From positions 1 to 22,039 of the forward strand of contig JBLFWS010000041.1 in the NCBI GenBank assembly GCA_047611865.1: a DNA stretch of 22,039 nt. Reading direction: 5' to 3'. This document shows, piece after piece, positions 720-15,581 of the stretch. The position numbers and the translations under genes were made by a program. Each line of letters starts with the position of its first letter. Positions within the stretch are counted from its first letter, which is position 1. The notes under the pieces were generated by a model that saw only the letters and a list, made by a program, of their open reading frames with translations, was not told the DNA's origin and searched no databases. This DNA comes from Chlamydiales bacterium (GTDB taxonomy: Bacteria > Chlamydiota > Chlamydiia > Chlamydiales > JBDQID01).

Positions 720-1730
720 TTATTTTAGCAAATCTTTTTTTATCGCAAAGCGATTAAGAAGACCCGCAATAAGGCCATTGCTTGGTGAAACGACTAAAGC
801 CAGAATATAAAATACAGCAATGACACAAACAACCAAGCCCGCTGTTGAGAGGGGGATATAGTATATTGACAAGAGATGCCTTGACAAAGCCACCCCTGTC
901 ACCGAAGAAACTATTCCTACAACAGAACTAATAAACAGCATTTTCCCCAAACGATCAGTAAGTAACCTGGCTATCAAAGGAGGCCCTACTATAAATGTCA
1001 AAACCATCAGAACTCCCACCGCACGAAAAGCTCCAATTGATGTAGCAGAAACGTTAACCATCAAGAGATAATTAAAAAATACAGTTGAAATCCCCAAAGA
1101 CTTTGCTAGCTGAGTATCAAAGCTCGTTATTTTGAATTCTTTAAAAAAAGCCGTGAAAACAAAAATATTCAGTAGCACTACAGTATATACGAGTTTTAAA
1201 TCATCAATATGTAAAGCATCCACGTTTCCCATAACCACTTCTGCGCCAATATGAGCATTACGGGTGTACATTGAGATCAGAATAATCCCCAATGCAAACA
1301 TAGTACTAAAAACCAAACCGGTACTGGCATCTTCCTGTAACCTGACAACAGTAGTTAAGAATTCCGTAAGAAAAGTCGTTAAAATCCCTGTAACTACAGC
1401 CGCAATCATCATTGCCTGAATATCAATCCCCTGGTGATCATGACCATCAGCAGAATTATGCGTAAGAATATATGCGAGCACTATACCTAACAAAATAGTA
1501 TGAGAAAGAGAGTTAGCCAACATCGTCATTCTTCTTAACACCAGAAAAGTTCCTACAATTGAGGAGGAAATAGCCACCCCAACGAGTACAAGCATTTGCA
1601 ACTCATCAGCCACCAAGCCCTCAATCTCTACATTTCCGCTACAAAAGCTGATGAATCGTTGTATCAGAGTCAGAAAAAAACCCAGAAAATCTTGCTTGTA
1701 GTAGGGGTTAATATAAGCTAATAAGGTCAT
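720..1730 (-). CDS. ytgD: Mn/Zn/Fe ABC transporter permease (TroD/YtgD, ABC-3 family)
   Basis: Hydrophobic protein with GTFLVLRRMTMLANSLSHTILLG, EDASTGLVFS and AFRAVGVLMV motifs. Start overlaps the upstream stop (ATGA) and it is the last permease of the operon. Confidence 0.92.
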   Translation of the reverse strand: MTLLAYINPYYKQDFLGFFLTLIQRFISFCSGNVEIEGLVADELQMLVLVGVAISSSIVGTFLVLRRMTMLANSLSHTILLGIVLAYILTHNSADGHDHQGIDIQAMMIAAVVTGILTTFLTEFLTTVVRLQEDASTGLVFSTMFALGIILISMYTRNAHIGAEVVMGNVDALHIDDLKLVYTVVLLNIFVFTAFFKEFKITSFDTQLAKSLGISTVFFNYLLMVNVSATSIGAFRAVGVLMVLTFIVGPPLIARLLTDRLGKMLFISSVVGIVSSVTGVALSRHLLSIYYIPLSTAGLVVCVIAVFYILALVVSPSNGLIAGLLNRFAIKKDLLK

Positions 1731-3076
1731 GGTATCGTCGCTTTTCTTGGGGGGATAGGCTGAAAGTGAGGGTCTCGTTTAGGATCATGGAGAAGATCTG
1801 TTAACTTCTCCTCCAACTCTGGTGTAATAATATGCTCCATCTCTTCTGCAGATTTGTGAACACGCTCTACTCCAAAGCCTAGATAGCTTGCTAGGTACAC
1901 TTCCCAAAGTCTATGCAAACGTACAATATGTGCAGCACGATGTTGACCATCAGTGGTGAGTTGATACATATCACCTTCGATTTTCACTACCCAACCCTGA
2001 TCTATTAATCTAGATAGAGTAAAATACACAATGTAACGCGAAGTACTTTGTAAGTTTGCTAATTGACTTAAGGCAACCCCCTTTACCTCCCCAAAACGCC
2101 AAATTGTCTTTAGAAGATTTTCCTGTAAACACTGAAAGCGAAACTTCATTATACGCCAAGTTCTTAACAGGACTCCTCTTTCAGGAGCTATTAGTAAAGA
2201 AAGTACACATATACTTGAAGCAACAAGAACTATAACGGGTCCCGTTGGAAGTGATACACGCCAGGAAGGATAGAAAGCCTTAAGATACTGGGAATATTCT
2301 ACAGAGATCACTACACCAAAGAAGCCACTAGCAACTCCAAAAAATGCTGAGAGAAAAAACATTTTGTATAATTTATTGGTATATTGTCGTGCTGCAGCAG
2401 CAGGAGCAATTAACATTGCTGACATCAACACAACTCCTACACTTCTAATCCCCACAATAACAGCAAGTACTATCAAAAAGAAAATCAGGCTTTCGATTAA
2501 GTTTGCTTTGATACCTACTGTAAGAGCAAAATCCCTATCAAAATTAATAACTTGTAATTCCTTGTATAAAAGAAAAACTACCAAAACAATGAAAAAAGAA
2601 AGTCCACCATATAAGACTACATGCATATCCGTCATCGTTGCAGCTTGTCCATAAAGATAGCTTTGAATCTGGATATAAAGGGTTGTATGAGTAAATTGAA
2701 CTCTACTCGCTAAAGTAACTCCGACTCCAAAAAATACAGACAAGACGAGACAAAGAGCTGAGTCAACACGTACTCCAAAACGGTTTTCCAATAAGTTTAT
2801 TACCCACAATCCCAATACAGAGGATAAAAATGCTCCAACCATTATACAAGGAGCAAGCCATTCTCCTCCCAAGTCATTAGGGAATAGGACTGAATAAAAT
2901 ACTACTGCGAGAATAACGCCTGGGTAAGAAGCATGGGACAAGCTCTCACCTAAAAGCGACTGCTTACGCAAAAAAACAATAACTCCAACTAGAGAAGCCG
3001 CAAGACACATCAGCATGCAACCCAAGGTAGGTGCCCTAAGAACAGGATCGGTAAAATACATTAGTAAATAATTCAA
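1727..3076 (-). CDS. ytgC: Metal ABC permease fused to a C-terminal DtxR/MntR-type repressor (YtgCR / TroC-TroR fusion)
   Basis: N-terminal ABC-3 permease (LRKQSLLGESLSHASYPG, GIRSVGVVLMSAMLIAP). From about residue 319 a DtxR-like domain (ENLLKTIW, LTTDG, VRLHRLWEVYL, AEEMEH, DPHFQPIP). Confidence 0.93.
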   Translation of the reverse strand: MNYLLMYFTDPVLRAPTLGCMLMCLAASLVGVIVFLRKQSLLGESLSHASYPGVILAVVFYSVLFPNDLGGEWLAPCIMVGAFLSSVLGLWVINLLENRFGVRVDSALCLVLSVFFGVGVTLASRVQFTHTTLYIQIQSYLYGQAATMTDMHVVLYGGLSFFIVLVVFLLYKELQVINFDRDFALTVGIKANLIESLIFFLIVLAVIVGIRSVGVVLMSAMLIAPAAAARQYTNKLYKMFFLSAFFGVASGFFGVVISVEYSQYLKAFYPSWRVSLPTGPVIVLVASSICVLSLLIAPERGVLLRTWRIMKFRFQCLQENLLKTIWRFGEVKGVALSQLANLQSTSRYIVYFTLSRLIDQGWVVKIEGDMYQLTTDGQHRAAHIVRLHRLWEVYLASYLGFGVERVHKSAEEMEHIITPELEEKLTDLLHDPKRDPHFQPIPPRKATIP

Positions 3077-3093: not shown

Positions 3094-3900
3094 CTACAAA
3101 AAGCCTGAAGTTCTATTTTGCGAAAGCTTTGCTGCTTCACCAAATAGCGCATGACTTTTGCCAAACGCAGAGTGCATGGTTGTTTCGTTAAAAACATCAA
3201 TAGTTTTCCCAGATGCAACCAAATGCATGTTCAATATCACAAGCCAGTCAAAATATGACTCAACAGAATTTAAATCGTGATGAACGATAAAAATCGTTTT
3301 CCCTTCATCACGAAGCTTACGTAGAAGCTCAATAATCACCTTCTCTGTGGCCATATCAACGCCAACAAAGGGTTCATCCATAAAGTAAATATCAGCCTCC
3401 TGCATAAAGGCTCTAGCAATAAACACCCTCTGCTGCTGTCCACCGGACAATTTGTTAATTTGCCTTTCTGCAAAAGAACGCATCCCAACCATATCTAAAT
3501 AATGTTTTGCCGCTTCTTTATCAGCTTTACGAGGCCATCGGAGCAAACCCAATTTGCCATATCGGCCCATCAAAACAAGATCAAGAACAGTAATTGGGAA
3601 ATCCCAATCCACAGTCTCTTTCTGGGGAACATAAGCTACGCGTCCACATACTTCCTTAAAAGTCTTCCCAAAAAATTCGACCTTACCCGAGATCGGTTTG
3701 ATCAAATTTAAAGCCGTTTTTACTAAGGTCGTTTTCCCTGCCCCGTTTGGACCAATCACCCCAACGATGTTTCCTGGAGGTACAGCCATGGACACATCCC
3801 AAAGGACAGGCGTTTTATCATAATTTACTGTTATCTGATAAAGCTGTAATGCTGGCGGAACGAAGTTACTACTTTGCTGTTGGCTCATCGTAGTTTCCAT
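3094..3900 (-). CDS. ytgB: Metal ABC transporter ATP-binding protein (TroB/YtgB); start may be ATG 3888
   Basis: Walker A GPNGAGKT, signature LSGGQQQR, Walker B YFMDEPF, H-loop VHHDL, and the YVPQ..VDWDFP motif typical of TroB/MntA. Confidence 0.95.
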   Translation of the reverse strand: METTMSQQQSSNFVPPALQLYQITVNYDKTPVLWDVSMAVPPGNIVGVIGPNGAGKTTLVKTALNLIKPISGKVEFFGKTFKEVCGRVAYVPQKETVDWDFPITVLDLVLMGRYGKLGLLRWPRKADKEAAKHYLDMVGMRSFAERQINKLSGGQQQRVFIARAFMQEADIYFMDEPFVGVDMATEKVIIELLRKLRDEGKTIFIVHHDLNSVESYFDWLVILNMHLVASGKTIDVFNETTMHSAFGKSHALFGEAAKLSQNRTSGFL

Positions 3901-4903
3901 TTAAATAATTAGAAATTGTCAATGCGTTGTGCCTGATCATCTTCAGATAACTATCTCCTGTACTTCCTGATTCGCCCTTAGCATCCCCATAAAGAGCTGT
4001 TCTTGCAATTTTTACAGATATGTCCTTTTCAAGGGCGGCATCAAGAATTTTCCTAATTGAATCCTTACTGACATTGGACTCTGAAAAAAGAATGCTAATA
4101 TTGTATTTTTCAAGATGTTCTAACGTATTCTGTATGTCCATTGTACTTATTTGAGCGTCAGGTGCAAGCCCTTCAGGAGACTGAAAACGAATTTTCCATT
4201 GCTCAAAATCTTTCTCTTCAGGACCAGCTAGATAGGAACGAGTAAAATAATTAAATGCATCATGACTAGTTACCAGGTAACGCTTATCTTCTGGAACAGA
4301 ATGCAATAACTCTCGGACTTCTTTATCTACTCTCTTCATCTCTAGCATAAATTCCTGGCCATTCAGGCGATAAGCTGCTGCATGTTCTGGGTCATGCTTA
4401 CTTAGCTTCTCCACAATGATTGGCAAAGTCCTCATCCACATAGAGATGTCCATCCAAATGTGAGGGTCAAGTTGTCCATCAACTTCTAGAATTAATTCCT
4501 TGTATTTCTCACGAACTATATCTCCAAGTGAAAAGGCAAGCGGATTGTTTTCAAGGCTATGCTTTAAGCTGGGTCCATGCTCCAGGCCCAAACCGTTATA
4601 AAAAATGATATCCGCATACTCCAGCTTTTCCCCGTCCCCTTTAACCAGTTCATATGAATGAGGGTCAAGGTTCCCTTTAATCAGCGAGATGGAGGTAACA
4701 TGTTCTCCTCCAACCCTTCTCACGAGGTCATCAATCATACCAATTGTCGAAAGAACTCTAATTTTCCCTTTAGAGTCTACCCAATCCTCAAACTCTTTAC
4801 CGTGAGAAATATCCACTCCACCAGAACAAGAAACTAATAGGATCAAAAAGCCACAACACAGCAAACGAAAAAATGAACTTCCTAAGACATTATTTACGGG
4901 CAT
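3869..4903 (-). CDS. ytgA: Metal ABC transporter substrate-binding lipoprotein (TroA/YtgA)
   Basis: Lipobox LVSC and the cluster A-I metal-ligand motifs DPHSYE, DPHIWMD, SHDAFNYF and LYGD. RBS AGAGGA upstream. Confidence 0.93.
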   Translation of the reverse strand: MPVNNVLGSSFFRLLCCGFLILLVSCSGGVDISHGKEFEDWVDSKGKIRVLSTIGMIDDLVRRVGGEHVTSISLIKGNLDPHSYELVKGDGEKLEYADIIFYNGLGLEHGPSLKHSLENNPLAFSLGDIVREKYKELILEVDGQLDPHIWMDISMWMRTLPIIVEKLSKHDPEHAAAYRLNGQEFMLEMKRVDKEVRELLHSVPEDKRYLVTSHDAFNYFTRSYLAGPEEKDFEQWKIRFQSPEGLAPDAQISTMDIQNTLEHLEKYNISILFSESNVSKDSIRKILDAALEKDISVKIARTALYGDAKGESGSTGDSYLKMIRHNALTISNYLNGNYDEPTAK

Positions 4904-4926: not shown

Positions 4927-5250
4927 TTAGCGACCAAGTTCAATAGCCTCAAGATTTATTATCCTTAAGAAGTCAAATCCATAAATACCATTTGAACAAC
5001 CAGATGTGAAATCGATACGGAGGGCGTAACGTCCCACACTTTTCACACGTTTTGCCCGAACGTTCTCATCAATTGTCGCTATATCAAGAACTCTTTTTCC
5101 TGTTGACTCGTCAACACAACTCGCACAAGGACATTTTTTTTGAAGATCACTTAGGCGATAATCTACCAACATCCCATCAGTCCATTCTATAGTAAAGACA
5201 TGATCGTCTTTTTGTTGAATGGATCGAACAAAAGCAGCTCTAGCTTGCAT
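4927..5250 (-). CDS. DUF971 / gamma-butyrobetaine-hydroxylase N-terminal-like small metal-binding protein
   Basis: IEWTDG, LQKKCPCASCVDESTG, VGRYALRIDF and GIYGFDFL match the DUF971 pattern. Start placed at ATG 5250 (MQARAAF), overlapping the mrp 3' end; the ORF track start at 5298 is an alternative. Confidence 0.85.
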   Translation of the reverse strand: MQARAAFVRSIQQKDDHVFTIEWTDGMLVDYRLSDLQKKCPCASCVDESTGKRVLDIATIDENVRAKRVKSVGRYALRIDFTSGCSNGIYGFDFLRIINLEAIELGR

Positions 5251-6106
5251 GAGAGCTATCCTCCCATAGTAATTCAAAGTTTTCCATATGCTTGCCATTT
5301 TCCCCTTTCATTACTTCCACATGATCCAAAACCCTCTCTGCCAGGTGAAGAAATTCCTTAGAAAGTGGACTCTCTGGCTTTTGTGAGAGAATAGAAATCC
5401 CCATATCACAGAAATGAGAGAAGTCTGGATCAATTGGCAAAGATCCCAGAAGCTGAACACCCGCCTCTTCCGCTAATGCCTTTCCACCTCCTCTACCGAA
5501 GAGATAGATTTTTTCACCTGAGCGTTCATGAAAGTAGTAGCTCATATTCTCAACTACCCCAACTACAGGTACATGAACTTTAGTAAACAGCTCCATGGCT
5601 TTCCGCACATCACTTACCGCAACCTGTTGAGGAGTTGTGACCATTAGTGCTGCTGTAATGTGAGCCTGCTGACACAAGGTTAATTGAATATCCCCGGTAC
5701 CTGGAGGAAAGTCAATAATAAGATCATCCAAATCACCCCAGTCAGTATTATTAATAAATTGAGAGATCAGTCCATTGGCAATCGGAGCCCTGATCACAGC
5801 CGCCTCATTATCCTTCCGAAAATAGGCCATGGACATCACCCGTATACCTTGGGACAAGGCAGGCTGAAGAATATCCCCCTTTTGTTCAGGTAGTCGATCC
5901 TCAGGGAGCATCCTCCTCACTGAAGGTCCGTAAATATCTGTGTCCATAATACCAACAGTACGACCAAGGCGCTTAAGTGCCATCGCAAGATTCACTGCGA
6001 CAGAGGATTTGCCTACGCCTCCCTTCCCTGCAGCTACAGCAATTACATTTTTCACTCTTGAAAGCGCGTGTATCGGTTTCTTTTCATCAAACATCTTCAG
6101 GGGCAT
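5240..6106 (-). CDS. mrp: Mrp/ApbC/NBP35-family P-loop ATPase (Fe-S cluster carrier family), atypical: lacks CxxC
   Basis: Deviant Walker A GKGGVGKS, plus DTDIYGPS, DFPPGTGD, VTTPQ and VVENMS. Start set at ATG 6106 (MPLKMF), preceded by RBS GGAGA. Confidence 0.92.
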   Translation of the reverse strand: MPLKMFDEKKPIHALSRVKNVIAVAAGKGGVGKSSVAVNLAMALKRLGRTVGIMDTDIYGPSVRRMLPEDRLPEQKGDILQPALSQGIRVMSMAYFRKDNEAAVIRAPIANGLISQFINNTDWGDLDDLIIDFPPGTGDIQLTLCQQAHITAALMVTTPQQVAVSDVRKAMELFTKVHVPVVGVVENMSYYFHERSGEKIYLFGRGGGKALAEEAGVQLLGSLPIDPDFSHFCDMGISILSQKPESPLSKEFLHLAERVLDHVEVMKGENGKHMENFELLWEDSSHAS

Positions 6107-6768
6107 TATTTCTCCATTTATTGACATAATTTTTAATTTATAACTATAGCAAAAATAAAAGTTTTCAAGCAAAAGGTTTCTAGATTACACATAATAATTC
6201 ATTAGCCAAAATTATTCTTTATACCTTAGGAGAAAAACCGACTCAATCCATATATATAATCACTATCTAATTATATAAACACCAAATAACTAAATCTACA
6301 GAAACAAAGGCAACCAATCAAAACAAACAATAACCAACTCAAACGATACAAATATAGCGAAGTAAAATAAAACTAAATAGATTAAGAATTCTCTATAACA
6401 GAGCCTCTCAATCATCAGCTCTTTCTTCTTTTTTATCTTGCCTAAAATCGTACCATTTTTTATACATTGCACTTAAAGATTAAACCCAATTAATACCCAT
6501 AAAAGTTATGCCTTTTCCAATCGAAATGAGTCCATACCAAATTTTTCTAAGAAGATTAGATATGCTTTGTGACTTTAAGAGGACAATAAAGAGAGCGAGA
6601 AACCACCTTGCTGGTGGATGATTGTAGTTAATCAATTCTTGCCTATACAAATACTTAATTTCCTATGCTCAAAACAAATATGAAAATCTCGAAATCAAGA
6701 ATGGACTTACAAAATTAAAAACCAGCGGGTAAGGGTAAATCCATCAATTAGACACAAAAAAAGGAAAA

Positions 6769-9094: not shown

Positions 9095-9137
9095 TAAAAA
9101 GGTGAAAAACCGTCGTTAAAAAGGTGAAAACCGCCGT
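9095..9137 (+). repeat. Imperfect tandem duplication (22 + 21 bp)
   Basis: TAAAAAGGTGAAAAACCGTCGT followed directly by TAAAAAGGTGAAAA-CCGCCGT. Confidence 0.85.
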
Positions 9138-9240
9138 CAATTGCTCTCTTGAACTATTCCTGGAGCAACAGGGCCCGTTACCCTTGTTAACGAATTGCCC
9201 GGGAATTAACAAGATTCAAATCAACAATAGGATAAAGTGC

Positions 9241-10839
9241 ATGAGTACTAAAGAACAAACAACACCAGAATTTACGGGATGGCGAGCTGCTCTATGGCCC
9301 ATCCACGGGGAAGAATTGAAAAAGTTCCTGCCCTTAGCTTTTATTATGTTTTGCCTTCTGTTTAACTACACAATTCTACGAGATACAAAAGATACACTTG
9401 TAGTTAACTCCGCTGGAGCAGGTGCCATCACATTTTTAAAGCTATATTGCGTGACACCAGCAGCTATTTTATTTGTTATAATTTACGCCAAACTGACAAA
9501 CCTTCTCAACAGAGAGACCGTCTTTTACGCTGTTGTTACTCCGTTCCTGGTCTTTTTTGCAGCTTTTGCATTTGTGATCTACCCTAACCTGGAAGCAATG
9601 CACCCTTCACTAGAAACAGTCCAGGCACTGCACCAAAACTACCCCAGATTTAGTGGTTTCATCGATATATACGCCTACTGGGCTTTCTCTCTTTTCTACG
9701 TTCTTGCGGAGATTTGGGGAAGCGCAATGATTGCTCTAATGTTCTGGCAGTTTGCCAACCACGTTGTTCGCATGACAGAATCTAAAAGATTTTACGGTCT
9801 TTTCGCTGTTATCGGTAACCTCGCACTAGTCCTTTCAGGTCAAGTCGTTAAATTTTCATCCAGCTACATTCAAAAGTTTTACGCGACGAAAGAAGAAGCC
9901 TGGTCAGCATCAGTCGGCCTCCTCATGGCCGCTGTTATATTGTTTGGACTAATCGCAATGGGCCTCTACCGCTGGATGCACACTTCCGTCTTAACCGACA
10001 AGAGATTCTTTGACGCAGAGAAGGCACCTGTAAAATCCAAAAAGAAAAAAGAAAAGCCTTCACTAGTGGAAAGTGCAAAACTCATCCTAAATTCACCTGA
10101 GCTTGGCCTAATCGCTATTCTAATCATGGCATACGGTGTTACTATCAACCTGGTTGAAGTTCAGTGGAAACATCAGCTTGGCTTATGGTATGCTGGTGAC
10201 AAAGGTGGTTACAACAGCTTCATGGGAGACTTCTCCACTCTAACAGGTATTACAACTATTTTGTTCGGACTATTCCTTGGTTCAAACATCCTACGCCGTG
10301 TGAGCTGGTTCAAAGCTGCTATTATCACCCCTCTGGTTATTACTGCAGGTGGAGCTTTCTTTTTCTTTTTCATTTTTTCAGAAAGCTTTGTCACCCTTAT
10401 TTCTTCAAACTTCGGAATCACTGGCGTTGCTGCTGCCACTTTCCTTGGAGCTATCATTATCATTCTAAGCAAAGCCATCAAATACATTCTTTTTGATGCT
10501 ACAAAAGAAATGGCCTACATCCCTCTTGATGATGAGCTGAAGACAAAAGGTAAAGCTGCAGTTGATGTTATTGGAGGCCGTGCTGGCAAAGCTGGTGGTG
10601 CCTTCACTCAAAGCACACTCTTGATTTTGTTTGCTACTAAAGATGTTGTAGCCATTGCTCCAATTGCCTTCGGAGCTTTCTCCGTCGCTTGCGGACTTTG
10701 GTTTATCGCAGTAAAAGTACTTTCAAAGAAAGTAGACGCTGCGGTTAAACTTCGGTCTGAGCAGGAGCTTGAAGAGAAAGCTGTCAAAGACTCCTCAAAA
10801 AAAGTTGAAGAGATAGAGACAACTAAAGCTCCAAGTTAA
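9241..10839 (+). CDS. tlcA: NTT/TLC-family nucleotide transporter, probable ATP/ADP translocase (Npt1/TlcA)
   Basis: WPIHGEELKKFLP, NYTILRDTKDTLVV, FYVLAEIWGS, FWQFAN, KRFY and KEMAYIPLDDELKTKGKAAVD are NTT signatures. Start set at ATG 9241 after AGGA. Substrate specificity is inferred. Confidence 0.93.
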   Translation: MSTKEQTTPEFTGWRAALWPIHGEELKKFLPLAFIMFCLLFNYTILRDTKDTLVVNSAGAGAITFLKLYCVTPAAILFVIIYAKLTNLLNRETVFYAVVTPFLVFFAAFAFVIYPNLEAMHPSLETVQALHQNYPRFSGFIDIYAYWAFSLFYVLAEIWGSAMIALMFWQFANHVVRMTESKRFYGLFAVIGNLALVLSGQVVKFSSSYIQKFYATKEEAWSASVGLLMAAVILFGLIAMGLYRWMHTSVLTDKRFFDAEKAPVKSKKKKEKPSLVESAKLILNSPELGLIAILIMAYGVTINLVEVQWKHQLGLWYAGDKGGYNSFMGDFSTLTGITTILFGLFLGSNILRRVSWFKAAIITPLVITAGGAFFFFFIFSESFVTLISSNFGITGVAAATFLGAIIIILSKAIKYILFDATKEMAYIPLDDELKTKGKAAVDVIGGRAGKAGGAFTQSTLLILFATKDVVAIAPIAFGAFSVACGLWFIAVKVLSKKVDAAVKLRSEQELEEKAVKDSSKKVEEIETTKAPS

Positions 10840-11045: not shown

Positions 11046-14000
11046 ATGGAAAAGCAAAAACGCTGGCAATTTTTAGTAATTGTCGCTGTGGTTCTTCTAA
11101 CTTTCTACAATATTTTGCCTACAGTTTTCTACTACGGCAAACCACTTAGAAAGCCAATCGAAGAAAAAGCCGCAAATAGCATAGCAATCAATATTACAGA
11201 ACGCATTAATGACCAAGAAGACCTGGCCAACGAGTGGCTTTGGGCTTTCTGTAAAAATTTGAATATTTCTGCCAAGTCAATTGAACTTGTGCCTTCCAAT
11301 CCAAAACTCATTGAAGTTACTTTCAATGATGGGGCTGAAACTGAGACCTTCAAAAGATTCTTGCCTCGTGCAGGTGAACTTATTTCTTTTGTACCCTCTC
11401 AACTTAAATTATCCACAAGACCATCTGACAACCCGGAAAAGAAAGTCCTGGTCGAAAGGCGTATCGGTGTTCATCTGAATCCTGAAGAAGCAAGCAATTT
11501 ATTTGTTTATTCTTCAAAGAAAGATGAAAGTGGTAAATTGACCTCCTTTTACCGCCAGCTAGTATATGAGCGTGTAATTCAATTAGCCATGAGCCTGGGT
11601 TCTGAATCAGAAGAAGCCTTAAAGCTCTCTGCAGCCCTTCAAAGCTCTCCCGAACGCCCCAATGAAGAACTACTCCTGGATCTTGCATCTGGTATTTTAG
11701 AATACAATAAGCTTTTTGGGGACTTCAGCCCTATTACGCAGAGATACTACTCGGGTTTTTCTCGCGGTCTGTCAGCGGAGCAAAGAAGACCTGCCCGCCA
11801 TTTTGCTCAATTATTGGAAAAAGCAGAAGATAAAGCTAAATTCAAACGCGGCCTTATTCAAGATGAGCTTAAAGAGCAAGACCTGGACGCTGATGTCAAT
11901 AAGCAAGTACTGCTTGATACTCTTGAACAGCGAATTAATACCTTAAAAGATGCAAAACTCATTGTGAAAAACAGCGAAGATGCATTCGATGGGGACCTTG
12001 CCTCTTTCACTCAGGCTTCTCTACAAGAAAAGTTGAATGAAAGTGCTGAGCAAGGAAACCAAACGGGTATTCAAGTAATAGACCTAGATGGCCGTCACCC
12101 CTTCATAGAAAAAATCTCTATAGACTGGGAAAATGACTACCTCAGCCTCGAGCTTTATTCCGAAGTAAACGCCATACGTGAAACCAAAGCTCTAACTGAA
12201 GATGAAGCTTACGTCAAAGAAAGACTCAGCCAACTCGTCATCAATGATATAGCTCATATATCAAGATTTGCGGATGAAGTTGTAAAGCCTTCTCACGAAG
12301 ACTTTGTCGTTCAACTGAATAGACTAGCTAATAGTACAAGCGTAATAGCCTTCGATTTAGGTGAAATTGCCAAGAAACAAAGTACTCAGCTTCTTTCTAA
12401 TCTCACAGAGACGTGGCAGCCGTCACACCAGGATCTGAATAGAGACGTATTTCCTGTTATAGACTATGACTCTTACTCCATGCTCCCTGCGGAACAGCAA
12501 AGGCTTGGACTAGTTGTTTATGCCCCAGCAGCTCTGGATAATCATGAACTTCCCAAGGGCTTTCGCGCCAATGGAATTTATGTTATCGCTCGTGGTTTAA
12601 AAGATATCATGCGCAAGTACGAGGCCTACCCCGAAAGTGACGAAGCAATCGCTTTCATGGAAGACTTCAATAAGCTTCGCGATTTTATGCAAGATGAAGG
12701 CTTTACTGGATATCCAGGTACGATATTCGGGGATACTTCAGAATATACAAACGATTTCATATTTGAACTTTCAGACTATTACAGTAACCTCTTAAAAGCC
12801 TCACGAGAAGAATTCTCTATCAATGGTAGGAAATATTTTGCTGTTCTGGAACTCTCAGATACGGAACAACGTATTCTTTCCCAAAACAAGATCGAGAACG
12901 AAGTTCATGAAGACATCATGAAATGGCGTGATGAATACAATGCGGCACAAGTAGACCTCGATTTAACGAAAAGATATGTTGTACCTCCCCCTACTCGCAA
13001 TACTTTCTGGAGTAACTTAAAACTCAACGCTAGAAAATATTTCCGTGGGGATGACAGCAAGATATTAAAGTGGGGTCTTGACCTTTCCGGTGGAAAAATG
13101 GTTCGTGTTGGTTTGCGCGATGAAAACAACCGATCTGTTACCGATGAAGCTAGTTTAAAGCAGGGCCTCAATGAGCTGACATCAAGAGTTAACAAAATGG
13201 GTCTTTCAGAGGTTAACCTCCGTATTGAAGGCTCCAACATTGCCCTTGATTTTCCAGGCTCACAAGGTTTTTCAGCTTCTGACTTAATTAAAGCTTCTTC
13301 CATGCGCTTCCACGTCGTTAATGAGAAGTTTTCCTTACGCAACAGTGCATTGGCCACTGAAGTTCAACAATTCCTTCAAGACGTTTGGAATGAAGCTGTT
13401 GTAACAAATAGAAAAGATCTGGAAAGCATCAATGACATTGCGTGGCAACACCTGGGCGGTAGCGGTGATTCTTTTCAGCGCCCCCGTAGCGGCCATGCAA
13501 AGACCCTTTTCGAAAACGGTCTACGCATTGTAAACCCAAAAGAATCTGTTAAGTCAAATAACTTTGACGACACACTCTCTTCTGTGGCTATTTACAGAGG
13601 CGATGACCCTAGCGAATGGCGAGGACAGTCTACACCTCTATTTATAACATTCCATAACTATGCTCTAGAAGGTTCCGACCTTGAAAATGTTCATGCCGCT
13701 TATGATCCAGAAAAAGGAAATATCCTTTCTTTCGGCGTAAAAAGCACAAACTCTAAAGCAAATAGCTCATTCTCCTCTCCGAGAGAAAGTTTGCACACTT
13801 GGACATCACAATTTGCACAAGAAAAGATTGCGGGTACACCAAAAGCTGAATTCACCAGAGGTGATGGATGGCGTATGGCCGTTATTTTAAACGGCAATAC
13901 AATTAGTGAGCCTACTTTAAATCAGCCATTGCGTCATCATGCAATGATATACGGCAAGTTCTCACAAAGAGAAGTTAACAAGCTTGTTGCTGATCTAAAA

Positions 14001-15581
14001 GCCGGTAGCCTTAGTTTTACCCCTCGCATCCTTTCTGAAGAGAACATCAGCCCGGAACTCGGACAAGATGAACGCTTCCGTGGAATCTCTGCAGCTTTTG
14101 CTGGATTGGCTCTCGTTATTGCTACGATGATTTCCTATTACAGGTTTGGTGGTTTTATTGCCTCCTTAGCGGTAATGCTAAATTTATTGATTATGTGGGG
14201 AATCCTTCAGAATCTAGATGCAGCATTAACACTTGCCGGAATTGCAGGGATCATCCTAACGGTTGGTATGGCCGTTGATGCCAACGTACTGATATTTGAA
14301 CGTATCCGTGAAGAATACGCCATTTCGGGCCGTATTGCTTCAGCAGTCCATACAGGATACCGCAAAGCTTTCAGTGCTATTGTAGACTCCAATGTTACAA
14401 CAATAATTGCCGCTCTAATCCTGATGCAATTTGACTCTGGTCCGATTAAAGGTTTTGCTATTACTTTAATAATCGGTATCGCCTCATCAATGTTTACGGC
14501 TCTTTTTGTAACCCGTTATTACTTTACTGGCTGGGTTCAAAATCCTAAAAACAAAATGCTCAATATGGCAAATATCATAGGCAAATATAGCTTTGACTTC
14601 CTTGGAAAAGCTAAAGTCGCCTTTGTAATTTCCTTAGTCATTCTTGTTGGTGGAGGATCTCTTCTTCTCTCAGAAAGACAGAATATCCTTGGAATGGACT
14701 TTACCGGTGGATACGCTCTCTCTGTGAACGTTGATGAAGATGCTGATGGCTCGTACAGGGCTAGAGCAGAACAAGCTTTGCTCAGCGCAGGAGCCACTGA
14801 AGGAGACTTTCAGGTAAGGCAGCTTAATAAGGATAACCACCTCCGCATTCAACTTGGAATGAGTATGGAAGAGGAGGAACATCCCTTTTACAGCATGCCC
14901 GTGGAAGACACTGAGAAAAAGGTTGTATTTGAGTATGAGAAAAACCCTCGCATTGAATGGACTGTTAATTCACTTAGTAAATCAGGCCTGAAAATCGAAA
15001 AGGAGCGTCTTGTAGAGCTCGATAAAAACTGGACCTCTATTAGTGGACAGTTTTCTGATGTCATGCGTGACAATGCTTTGTTTGGCTTAGGTCTTTCCTT
15101 ACTGTGTATTCTGATTTACATCACAATACGCTTTGAGTTTAAGTACGCTATTAGTGCCATTCTCTGTGTTGCTCATGACGTCTTGGTTTCATTGGGAGCC
15201 CTTGGAATTTTCTATAAGTTGGGCCTAACCATACAAATCAATATGGAAACTATTGCAGCGGTCATGACGATTATTGGGTACTCTCTTAACGATACTATCA
15301 TTATCTTTGACAGGATTCGTGAAGATACTCAGATTATGCGCAAAAAGACATACGTTGAAATTGTCAACCATGCTCTCAATGCGACTCTGAGCCGTACTGT
15401 GATGACTTCAGCAACAACTCTGCTTGTGTTGATAGCCTTGCTTCTTTTTGGTGGAAGCCTGATTTTCGACTTTGTTTTTGTCATGACGATTGGTATTTTC
15501 ATTGGAACTTTGTCTTCATGGTTCATAGCCTCTCCTCTCTTGTTGTACTTTCACAACAGAGAAGAGCTGTCTAGTAATTAG
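11046..15581 (+). CDS. secDF: Protein translocase subunit SecDF fusion with a large chlamydial-type N-terminal soluble region
   Basis: SecD motifs WGLDLSGG and LTLAGIAGIILTVGMAVDANVLIFERIREE. SecF motifs LGMDFTGG, YITIRFE and IGYSLNDTIIIFDRIRE. Confidence 0.96.
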   Translation: MEKQKRWQFLVIVAVVLLTFYNILPTVFYYGKPLRKPIEEKAANSIAINITERINDQEDLANEWLWAFCKNLNISAKSIELVPSNPKLIEVTFNDGAETETFKRFLPRAGELISFVPSQLKLSTRPSDNPEKKVLVERRIGVHLNPEEASNLFVYSSKKDESGKLTSFYRQLVYERVIQLAMSLGSESEEALKLSAALQSSPERPNEELLLDLASGILEYNKLFGDFSPITQRYYSGFSRGLSAEQRRPARHFAQLLEKAEDKAKFKRGLIQDELKEQDLDADVNKQVLLDTLEQRINTLKDAKLIVKNSEDAFDGDLASFTQASLQEKLNESAEQGNQTGIQVIDLDGRHPFIEKISIDWENDYLSLELYSEVNAIRETKALTEDEAYVKERLSQLVINDIAHISRFADEVVKPSHEDFVVQLNRLANSTSVIAFDLGEIAKKQSTQLLSNLTETWQPSHQDLNRDVFPVIDYDSYSMLPAEQQRLGLVVYAPAALDNHELPKGFRANGIYVIARGLKDIMRKYEAYPESDEAIAFMEDFNKLRDFMQDEGFTGYPGTIFGDTSEYTNDFIFELSDYYSNLLKASREEFSINGRKYFAVLELSDTEQRILSQNKIENEVHEDIMKWRDEYNAAQVDLDLTKRYVVPPPTRNTFWSNLKLNARKYFRGDDSKILKWGLDLSGGKMVRVGLRDENNRSVTDEASLKQGLNELTSRVNKMGLSEVNLRIEGSNIALDFPGSQGFSASDLIKASSMRFHVVNEKFSLRNSALATEVQQFLQDVWNEAVVTNRKDLESINDIAWQHLGGSGDSFQRPRSGHAKTLFENGLRIVNPKESVKSNNFDDTLSSVAIYRGDDPSEWRGQSTPLFITFHNYALEGSDLENVHAAYDPEKGNILSFGVKSTNSKANSSFSSPRESLHTWTSQFAQEKIAGTPKAEFTRGDGWRMAVILNGNTISEPTLNQPLRHHAMIYGKFSQREVNKLVADLKAGSLSFTPRILSEENISPELGQDERFRGISAAFAGLALVIATMISYYRFGGFIASLAVMLNLLIMWGILQNLDAALTLAGIAGIILTVGMAVDANVLIFERIREEYAISGRIASAVHTGYRKAFSAIVDSNVTTIIAALILMQFDSGPIKGFAITLIIGIASSMFTALFVTRYYFTGWVQNPKNKMLNMANIIGKYSFDFLGKAKVAFVISLVILVGGGSLLLSERQNILGMDFTGGYALSVNVDEDADGSYRARAEQALLSAGATEGDFQVRQLNKDNHLRIQLGMSMEEEEHPFYSMPVEDTEKKVVFEYEKNPRIEWTVNSLSKSGLKIEKERLVELDKNWTSISGQFSDVMRDNALFGLGLSLLCILIYITIRFEFKYAISAILCVAHDVLVSLGALGIFYKLGLTIQINMETIAAVMTIIGYSLNDTIIIFDRIREDTQIMRKKTYVEIVNHALNATLSRTVMTSATTLLVLIALLLFGGSLIFDFVFVMTIGIFIGTLSSWFIASPLLLYFHNREELSSN

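Follow-up and report, generated by a model that had tools for sequence, protein, structure and literature searches.

A CxxC-less Mrp ATPase and a four-cysteine DUF971 protein as a predicted metal-handling pair beside the ytgABCD genes of Chlamydiota

We analyzed a 22,039-nucleotide (nt) contig of a Chlamydiales bacterium (JBLFWS010000041.1, assembly GCA_047611865.1), referred to here as the window, in which the gene of an Mrp-type ATPase overlaps the gene of a small DUF971 protein. The pair is of a known kind with new features: an Mrp that lacks both DUF59 and the CxxC pair is joined to a DUF971 domain with four cysteines, the two occur either fused or as split genes, and they are tied to the ytgABCD genes throughout the phylum. 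We think that the pair would act as an ATP-driven, late-acting factor whose sole metal site is the predicted four-cysteine site of DUF971. The Mrp-type ATPase and the DUF971 metal domain would then be two halves of one machine that serves the handling of iron or iron-sulfur (Fe-S) cofactors, with the ATPase driving the docking or release of its partner. The ATPase has kept its nucleotide-binding motifs and has lost the cysteine pair by which Mrp dimers bridge a [4Fe-4S] cluster.

For HCF101 and other carriers without CxxC, the way in which the cluster is bound is only partly understood. The phylum amounts to a clean natural experiment on DUF971, in that the ATPase has no conserved cysteine, the four-cysteine site is invariant, and the pair exists in fused as well as split form. 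The metal or cluster content of the pair would distinguish three roles of DUF971: ligand of a cluster, binding site for iron, or structural site for zinc.

The Mrp-DUF971 pair in the window and across the phylum

The features of the pair, as read from the sequence and from alignments to solved structures, are as follows.

5240..6127, minus strand: Mrp/NUBPL-family P-loop ATPase, 295 residues plus stop (PF10609)
4927..5250, minus strand: DUF971/GBBH-like_N protein, 107 residues plus stop (PF06155)
5519..5530, minus strand: HERS loop in place of the cluster-bridging CxxC, Mrp residues 200-203 (alignment to ApbC 8zkc)
5243..5281, minus strand: C-terminal tail of Mrp (NFELLWEDSSHAS) with an F-x-L-x-W motif, typical of split-type Mrps
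5260..5265, minus strand: GGGAGG Shine-Dalgarno sequence, 9 nt ahead of the DUF971 ATG (start 5250; sequence read)
5240..5250, minus strand: 11-nt overlap of the Mrp end and the DUF971 start, predicted translational coupling (sequence read)
5116..5133, minus strand: CPCASC, three of four putative metal ligands in a CxCxxC arrangement, DUF971 residues 40-45
4996..4998, minus strand: Cys85 in GCSNGIY, the fourth putative ligand, which is His in DUF971 elsewhere (alignment to 3luu)

The ATPase matched PF10609 in a profile search (E = 6.8e-88, 294.7 bits, cut-off 27.1), and its top match both by sequence (E = 9.3e-64) and by structure was the solved E. coli ApbC, 8zkc, with which it shares 40% identity in the structural alignment. 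Its scores fell below the NCBIfam equivalog cut-offs for ApbC (NF008669, 256 versus 348 bits) and MrpORP (NF041136, 264 versus 450 bits). The Walker A motif GKGGVGKS (G34-S41) and the DxPPGTGD switch (D139, P141-D146) are both present. A profile search for DUF59/FSCA (PF01883) found no match in the Mrp and none in its 95.5%-complete genome. No CxxC pair follows the ENMS motif: yyfHerSge of the window aligns over vhiCsnCgh of 8zkc, with histidine at the position of the first cysteine and serine at that of the second.

The partner protein, whose family is present as a single copy in the genome, matched PF06155 (E = 4.5e-23, 82.2 bits, cut-off 22.8; profile search) and the solved DUF971 protein 3luu (E = 1e-9). 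It has exactly four cysteines, at residues 40, 42, 45 and 85. The last lies in tsgCsngiy, which aligns over sdgHntgif of 3luu, so that the fourth ligand has changed from His to Cys and the histidine pattern GHxxG[IL][YF] is absent. The initial annotation of this DNA had described the HERS loop in place of CPxC, two scattered cysteines in the Mrp, and the CPCASC and GCSNGIY cysteines in the overlapping gene. All of its coordinates proved exact, the H..S of the loop falls over the C..C of 8zkc, and the two cysteines of the Mrp, its only ones, are Cys152 and Cys240. Its statement that DUF971 usually has a histidine as fourth ligand agrees with 3luu, where His lies over Cys85 of the window.

We then surveyed 301 genomes of the window's phylum and fetched 142 further DUF971 loci; all counts out of 143 include the window. 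PF06155 was found in 143 of the 301 genomes, with one copy in each, and in 152 the Mrp query had a match with an E-value of at most 1e-20. By family code, DUF971 and Mrp were present or absent together, with DUF971 in 32/32 genomes of f6, 24/26 of f9, 0/30 of f4 and 0/46 of f7. In the window and at each of the 142 other loci, Mrp lies directly upstream of DUF971 on the same strand. The two are fused into one open frame at 77 loci and split at 66, and the split genes overlap in 55 of 64 pairs (median -4 nt). The best named protein matches came from Parachlamydiaceae and Chlamydiales.

The CxxC pair was missing from all 143 Mrps, four of which have a single cysteine in the loop, and CxCxxC together with a cysteine at the fourth position was found in all 143 DUF971 domains. 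These four cysteines are invariant, even as DUF971 identity across the phylum falls to about 28%. No ATPase column reached a cysteine count above 46/143, and four of the ATPase parts contain no cysteine at all; the four DUF971 cysteines are the only conserved thiols of the module in these 143 sequences. At least 95% of the Mrps share the nucleotide-binding residues G34-S41, D139 and P141-D146, most of which are invariant in a 104-row alignment. Because the same is seen at 143/143 related loci, the CxxC-less and four-cysteine states of the window are not due to chance, and these Mrp and DUF971 traits belong to the phylum rather than to the window's genome alone. The loop histidine was considered as a replacement ligand at the first cysteine position and rejected, as only 18 of the 143 relatives have it; serine or threonine at the second position is commoner (63/143).

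The tail of the window's Mrp reads FELLWEDS, and the split-type tail in general is F-x-L-x-W-K-E-M-like. A strict F-x-L-x-W tail occurs in 41 of the 66 split Mrps and in 1 of the 77 fused ones, and the split-type tail aligns with the first DUF971 strand of one fused form. As a guess, the tail may be a docking peptide for the separate DUF971 partner.

The two domains almost certainly work together, judging from the natural fusions and from the predicted structure of a fused orthologue. Fusion in half of the relatives is in itself strong evidence of a common function. The fused orthologue (375 residues, 37-row alignment) was predicted with a mean predicted local distance difference test score of 89.4, a predicted template modelling score of 0.87 and a confident junction, and the model suggests that the Mrp and DUF971 domains pack in a defined way. 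Among solved structures in the PDB, none contained both domains, and every match covered the ATPase alone. The idea of a two-component Mrp-DUF971 carrier, put forward in the initial annotation, is supported in so far as the two form one module, adjacent or fused at 143/143 loci; relocated ligation is not supported as a general rule, since other lineages break the link between the traits. Cofitness of DUF971 mutants with Mrp, BolA and YggX has been reported for Shewanella and Pseudomonas (bioRxiv 10.1101/072470). The window's genome also has upstream Fe-S machinery, namely SufBD, a NifU_N protein and an A-type carrier.

A second Mrp paralogue is present in the window's genome (G000:C62, L002). 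It is 263 residues long, matches PF10609 at E = 3.5e-87, and has neither a CxxC pair nor any other cysteine. A 4-nt overlap links its start to the end of a gene for a 145-residue PF03692 protein (L002 1040-1477 and 1474-2265). PF03692 is the "CxxCxxCC zinc- or iron-chelating" family, and among 10 paralogue loci in related genomes, 7 have this partner upstream. These paralogues form their own clade with 100% support. Taken with the window pair, neither Mrp-type ATPase of this genome has cluster ligands, and both have a small cysteine-rich protein coupled to them.

The ytgABCD iron-import context

The genes downstream of the pair form a full ytgABCD-type set in the expected order, including the repressor fusion.

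3869..4903, minus strand: YtgA-like ZnuA-family solute-binding protein (PF01297, E = 2.9e-55), starting 23 nt past the DUF971 stop
3094..3900, minus strand: YtgB-like ATP-binding cassette (ABC) ATPase (PF00005)
1727..3076, minus strand: YtgC-YtgR-like fusion of an ABC-3 permease (PF00950, E = 7.8e-48) and a DtxR-type iron-dependent repressor domain (PF02742, E = 3.8e-23)
720..1730, minus strand: YtgD-like ABC-3 permease (PF00950, E = 3.5e-44)

Terminator prediction from DUF971 to the ytg genes found none between the genes, and the Mrp-DUF971 pair is probably co-transcribed with ytgABCD, to judge from the gene layout. In all 20 genomes checked, which span 18 family codes, the module is followed directly by ytgA and ytgB. 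These are the genes of the chlamydial ytgABCD iron importer, which has been described as the only one known (PMC7760296). The fixed place of the pair directly upstream of these genes suggests an unstudied step from iron uptake to cofactor assembly in chlamydiae, and our literature searches gave no paper on this form of the pair and none that connects ytg or chlamydiae with Mrp or DUF971.

Four type-1 Mrps of the phylum have no DUF971 after them (L148, L150, L151 and L161). Three of them, L148, L150 and L151, directly adjoin ytgA; L161 ends at a contig edge, and the match to L150 crosses two stop codons.

Ligand sites outside the phylum and the relation to HCF101

The initial annotation had proposed that loss of CxxC, adjacency to DUF971 and the His-to-Cys change vary together. 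They do so perfectly within the window's phylum, and the association is broken in other lineages. We sorted 120 matches among proteins longer than 517 residues by their Mrp loop and DUF971 ligands.

CxxC, no DUF971: 34
CxxC with Cys3His DUF971: 13
CxxC with S/S/V/H DUF971: 10, Hyphomicrobium-labelled
No CxxC, Cys3His DUF971: 31, HCF101-type, including red-algal P0140, P0146 and P0221
No CxxC, DUF971 ligands lost: 21, including the named chloroplast HCF101 of Corylus (P0190) and the Withania protein P0228, both D/S/S/F
No CxxC, no DUF971 match: 7
Other or dropped: 4

None of the 75 DUF971 domains in these fusions has four cysteines. The ten Hyphomicrobium-type proteins (P0171, P0175, P0183, P0188, P0189, P0199, P0201, P0209, P0227 and P0234) are DUF59-Mrp-DUF971 fusions and mirror the chlamydial state, with CxxC kept and S/S/V at the three DUF971 cysteine positions.

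Histidine counts at the loci described next include rows that were missed by the pattern and read by eye. Eighty DUF971 loci from many phyla, collected with a search pattern that favoured His, all had histidine and none had four cysteines (0/80). Eight of them are fused and 16 have a same-strand Mrp in the flank; among these 24, CxxC is present in 20, absent in two (L235, L250) and unreadable in two. In the 250 genomes of a Planctomycetota-labelled phylum there were 32 DUF971 loci, all with His, of which 13 are linked to Mrp; three of these 13 lack CxxC (L270, L280, L282). L235, L250, L270, L280 and L282 are separate CxxC-less Mrps beside or fused to Cys3His DUF971, from Terriglobia-/Bryobacterales-labelled and Planctomycetota-labelled genomes. 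In the phylum of genome G553, DUF971 was found in 186 of 296 genomes, a tally that takes in G806, whose locus is outside the 29 loci analyzed. At these 29 loci Mrp was always directly upstream, with overlapping split genes as the norm, CxxC was read in 28 (one loop being unreadable by pattern), and His was present in all. The archaeon-labelled genome of L204 belongs to this phylum of CxxC and His pairs.

A larger search among 1.84 billion proteins gave, in its top 150 profile matches, 115 four-cysteine and 32 Cys3His DUF971 proteins. Of the four-cysteine proteins, 57 were fused to Mrp, and CxxC was kept in 0/57. One divergent four-cysteine protein, P0362, was named as coming from a Planctomycetota metagenome-assembled genome. 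Its 30 best relatives in the 250 genomes of the Planctomycetota-labelled phylum all have His, and among 80 loci of its lineage in metagenomes 78 have His and two have Cys (L294, which is P0362, and L297). No Mrp was found in the fetched flanks of these 80 loci, L294 and L297 included. In this non-exhaustive search, a four-cysteine DUF971 linked to Mrp was met only in the window's phylum. Two giant proteins, P0241 (7702 residues) and P0280 (3509 residues), had 30 and 14 matches to DUF971 profile positions about 53-79, which probably represent an unrelated repeat.

Perfect co-occurrence of the three traits is confined to a single clade, whose Mrps have 100/99 support, and it therefore counts as one evolutionary event. 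Adjacency does not predict the loss of CxxC, because the G553-phylum pairs keep it. Nor is the His-to-Cys change needed for that loss, since the 31 HCF101-type proteins and L235, L250, L270, L280 and L282 keep His, and the change also arises without a linked Mrp, as in L294 and L297. We count at least five losses of CxxC among DUF971-linked Mrps: in the window's phylum, in the HCF101 clade, in L235 and L250, in L270, and in L280 and L282. These repeated losses, together with one lineage that lost the DUF971 cysteines and kept CxxC, are hints at some redundancy between the two sites, to which the green HCF101 proteins without either site are a counter-example.

HCF101, the plastid, mitochondrial and cytosolic eukaryotic Fe-S carrier, is like the window pair in combining an Mrp ATPase with DUF971 and in having lost CxxC in most members. 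The initial annotation had stated that plastid HCF101 lacks the canonical CxxC, and the named chloroplast HCF101 of our sample bears this out. Unlike the window's Mrp, HCF101 has an N-terminal DUF59, and unlike the window's DUF971 its domain still has His, except in the green lineage, where none of the four ligands is left. HCF101 carries DUF971 as a C-terminal fusion to its ATPase; the window encodes the two in separate, overlapping genes, and 77 of the 143 chlamydial relatives are fused.

In a quick tree of 111 Mrp domains, the chlamydial clade stood apart from the HCF101 clade, and in an approximately unbiased (AU) test on this set a tree joining them was better by 17 log-likelihood units (p-AU = 0.753). 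A more careful tree had 77 rows with the loop columns removed, and left out six long-branch chlamydial rows, two long rows labelled CC_noDUF and surplus rows per group. It placed the chlamydial clade (100/99) with bacterial fusions that keep CxxC and Cys3His (81/95), separate from the HCF101 clade (100/100), with the backbone open; joining the two clades cost 2.96 log-likelihood units (p-AU = 0.405), and neither AU test rejected such a joining. The losses of CxxC in the two clades were separate events, because the HCF101 clade includes the CxxC-bearing P0174 and P0237 and the chlamydial clade stands beside CxxC-bearing fusions. Within the phylum, the DUF971-less L148, L151 and L161 formed a group sister to all DUF971-bearing Mrps (L150 was left out for its long branch), and two to three switches between fused and split forms were needed; the fused outgroups, which were picked by length, bias any reading of the direction of these switches.

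An origin of HCF101 from bacteria of the Planctomycetes-Verrucomicrobia-Chlamydiae group has already been proposed, and the CxCxxC motif of DUF971 has already been published, in passages of the same paper (PMC7980591). Passages of this and another HCF101 paper describe the role of DUF971 as elusive or undefined (PMC7980591, PMC11838916). The DUF971 of green-lineage HCF101 cannot be a cluster site, because its four ligand columns read D/S/S/F.

Possible roles of the pair

In ATPase fold and motifs the window's Mrp resembles the ApbC/Mrp, Nbp35/Cfd1 and Ind1 (NUBPL) carriers, differing from them in the missing CxxC and in scores under the equivalog cut-offs. Bacterial Mrp-DUF971 fusions and pairs with CxxC and Cys3His (P0133, P0147 and the G553 phylum) share its domain pair and gene order, and in the careful tree the CxxC-keeping fusions stand closest to the chlamydial clade; unlike the window pair, such systems have CxxC, a histidine as fourth ligand and no link to ytgABCD. 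On the side of the partner, 3luu and the N-terminal zinc domain of gamma-butyrobetaine hydroxylase, the founder of PF06155, belong to the same Pfam family and have the same CxCxxC motif, with His rather than Cys as fourth ligand. The window protein is also a stand-alone protein coupled to an ATPase, and is not attached to a dioxygenase as in the hydroxylase.

We lean toward the reading that the four DUF971 cysteines hold a single metal ion, zinc or iron, and consider a ready-made [4Fe-4S] site less probable. The single-metal reading is drawn from the homology to a zinc site, from the free exchange between His and Cys as fourth ligand, and from the loss of the site in other lineages. The Cys3His site of gamma-butyrobetaine hydroxylase binds a single zinc. 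In stand-alone DUF971 genes the interchange is seen in L294 and L297 against their 78 His relatives, and whole lineages are without the ligands, both of which fit a single-metal site.

Several observations weigh against a single-metal, iron-linked role for the pair. Invariance of the four cysteines across very divergent genomes would also fit a catalytic or cluster-binding role. ytgA was found beside DUF971 at none of the 80 loci outside the phylum, and a linkage confined to the phylum could be inherited gene order without functional meaning. Counts of 8-mers in 141 regions upstream of mrp, compared with shuffled sequences, gave no palindrome and no shared motif or operator. We also considered aconitase (PF00330) as a specific client and rejected it: present in 210 of the 301 genomes, it does not track the module (20/46 versus 0/46 for the module in f7, and 0/4 versus 4/4 in f16).

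The main alternative reading of the cysteine evidence, which follows the proposal of the initial annotation, is that cluster ligation was relocated, with a transient Fe-S cluster held by the four DUF971 cysteines, either in one domain or bridging two by way of an ATP-bound Mrp dimer, to give a heteromeric carrier. We regard this as doubtful. It would account for four DUF971 cysteines as the only conserved thiols of the module, for the absence of CxxC from all 57 Mrp-fused four-cysteine proteins of the large library, for the repeated loss of CxxC in DUF971-linked Mrps, and for the reverse pattern in the ten Hyphomicrobium-type fusions. However, the homologous site of gamma-butyrobetaine hydroxylase holds a single zinc in a geometry unsuited to a cubane cluster, every other CxxC-less lineage keeps His except green HCF101, where all ligands are lost, and stand-alone genes whose fetched flanks contain no Mrp also show the His-to-Cys change. 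Green HCF101 itself, lacking both CxxC and the DUF971 ligands, is yet reported in part of one study to need three other cysteines for its cluster (PMC5890173). A broader version, in which DUF971 would be the missing metal- or cluster-holding module of HCF101-type carriers, seems unlikely to us; here the four-cysteine site would have replaced CxxC, an ATP-driven Mrp dimer would join two DUF971 domains around iron or a cluster supplied by Ytg, and the repeated losses of CxxC would be a convergent hand-over.

The pair might instead be a metallochaperone for the Ytg importer, in which the ATPase and its cysteine-rich partner pass imported iron, manganese or zinc to clients, much as HypB and HypA deliver nickel to hydrogenase (PDB 5aup, 5aun). 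ATPase-type HypB is likewise a CxxC-less Mrp/MinD-type ATPase with a small metal-binding partner; this likeness would be an analogy of mechanism only, and the ATPase fold alone was compared. The position upstream of ytgA, shared by the DUF971-less L148, L150 and L151, speaks for such a role, as do the HypB chains of HypAB complexes at ranks 6-10 of the structural matches (target TM-score, a template modelling score, of 0.81-0.84) and the second, cysteine-less paralogue with its PF03692 partner. We nevertheless hold it to be distinctly unlikely, in that the ATPase is far closer in sequence to Fe-S carriers, as its PF10609 and ApbC matches indicate, the ytg linkage is missing outside the phylum, and DUF971 phenotypes elsewhere point to Fe-S maintenance (10.1101/072470). 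Highly improbable in our estimate is a MinD/ParA-like switch for positioning or regulation, outside cofactor biogenesis, in which DUF971 would be an adaptor stabilised by zinc. The loss of the defining cluster site speaks for it, as do MinD, FleN and FlhG among the structural neighbours of the ATPase, but these matches are much weaker than those to ApbC and Cfd1, and the DUF971 partnership is common to CxxC-bearing Mrps of other phyla.

Elsewhere in the window are genes ordinary for an environmental chlamydia.

9124-10839, plus strand: TLC ATP/ADP translocase
11046-15581, plus strand: SecD/SecF-type fusion protein, 1511 residues
20702-21685, plus strand: ferrochelatase

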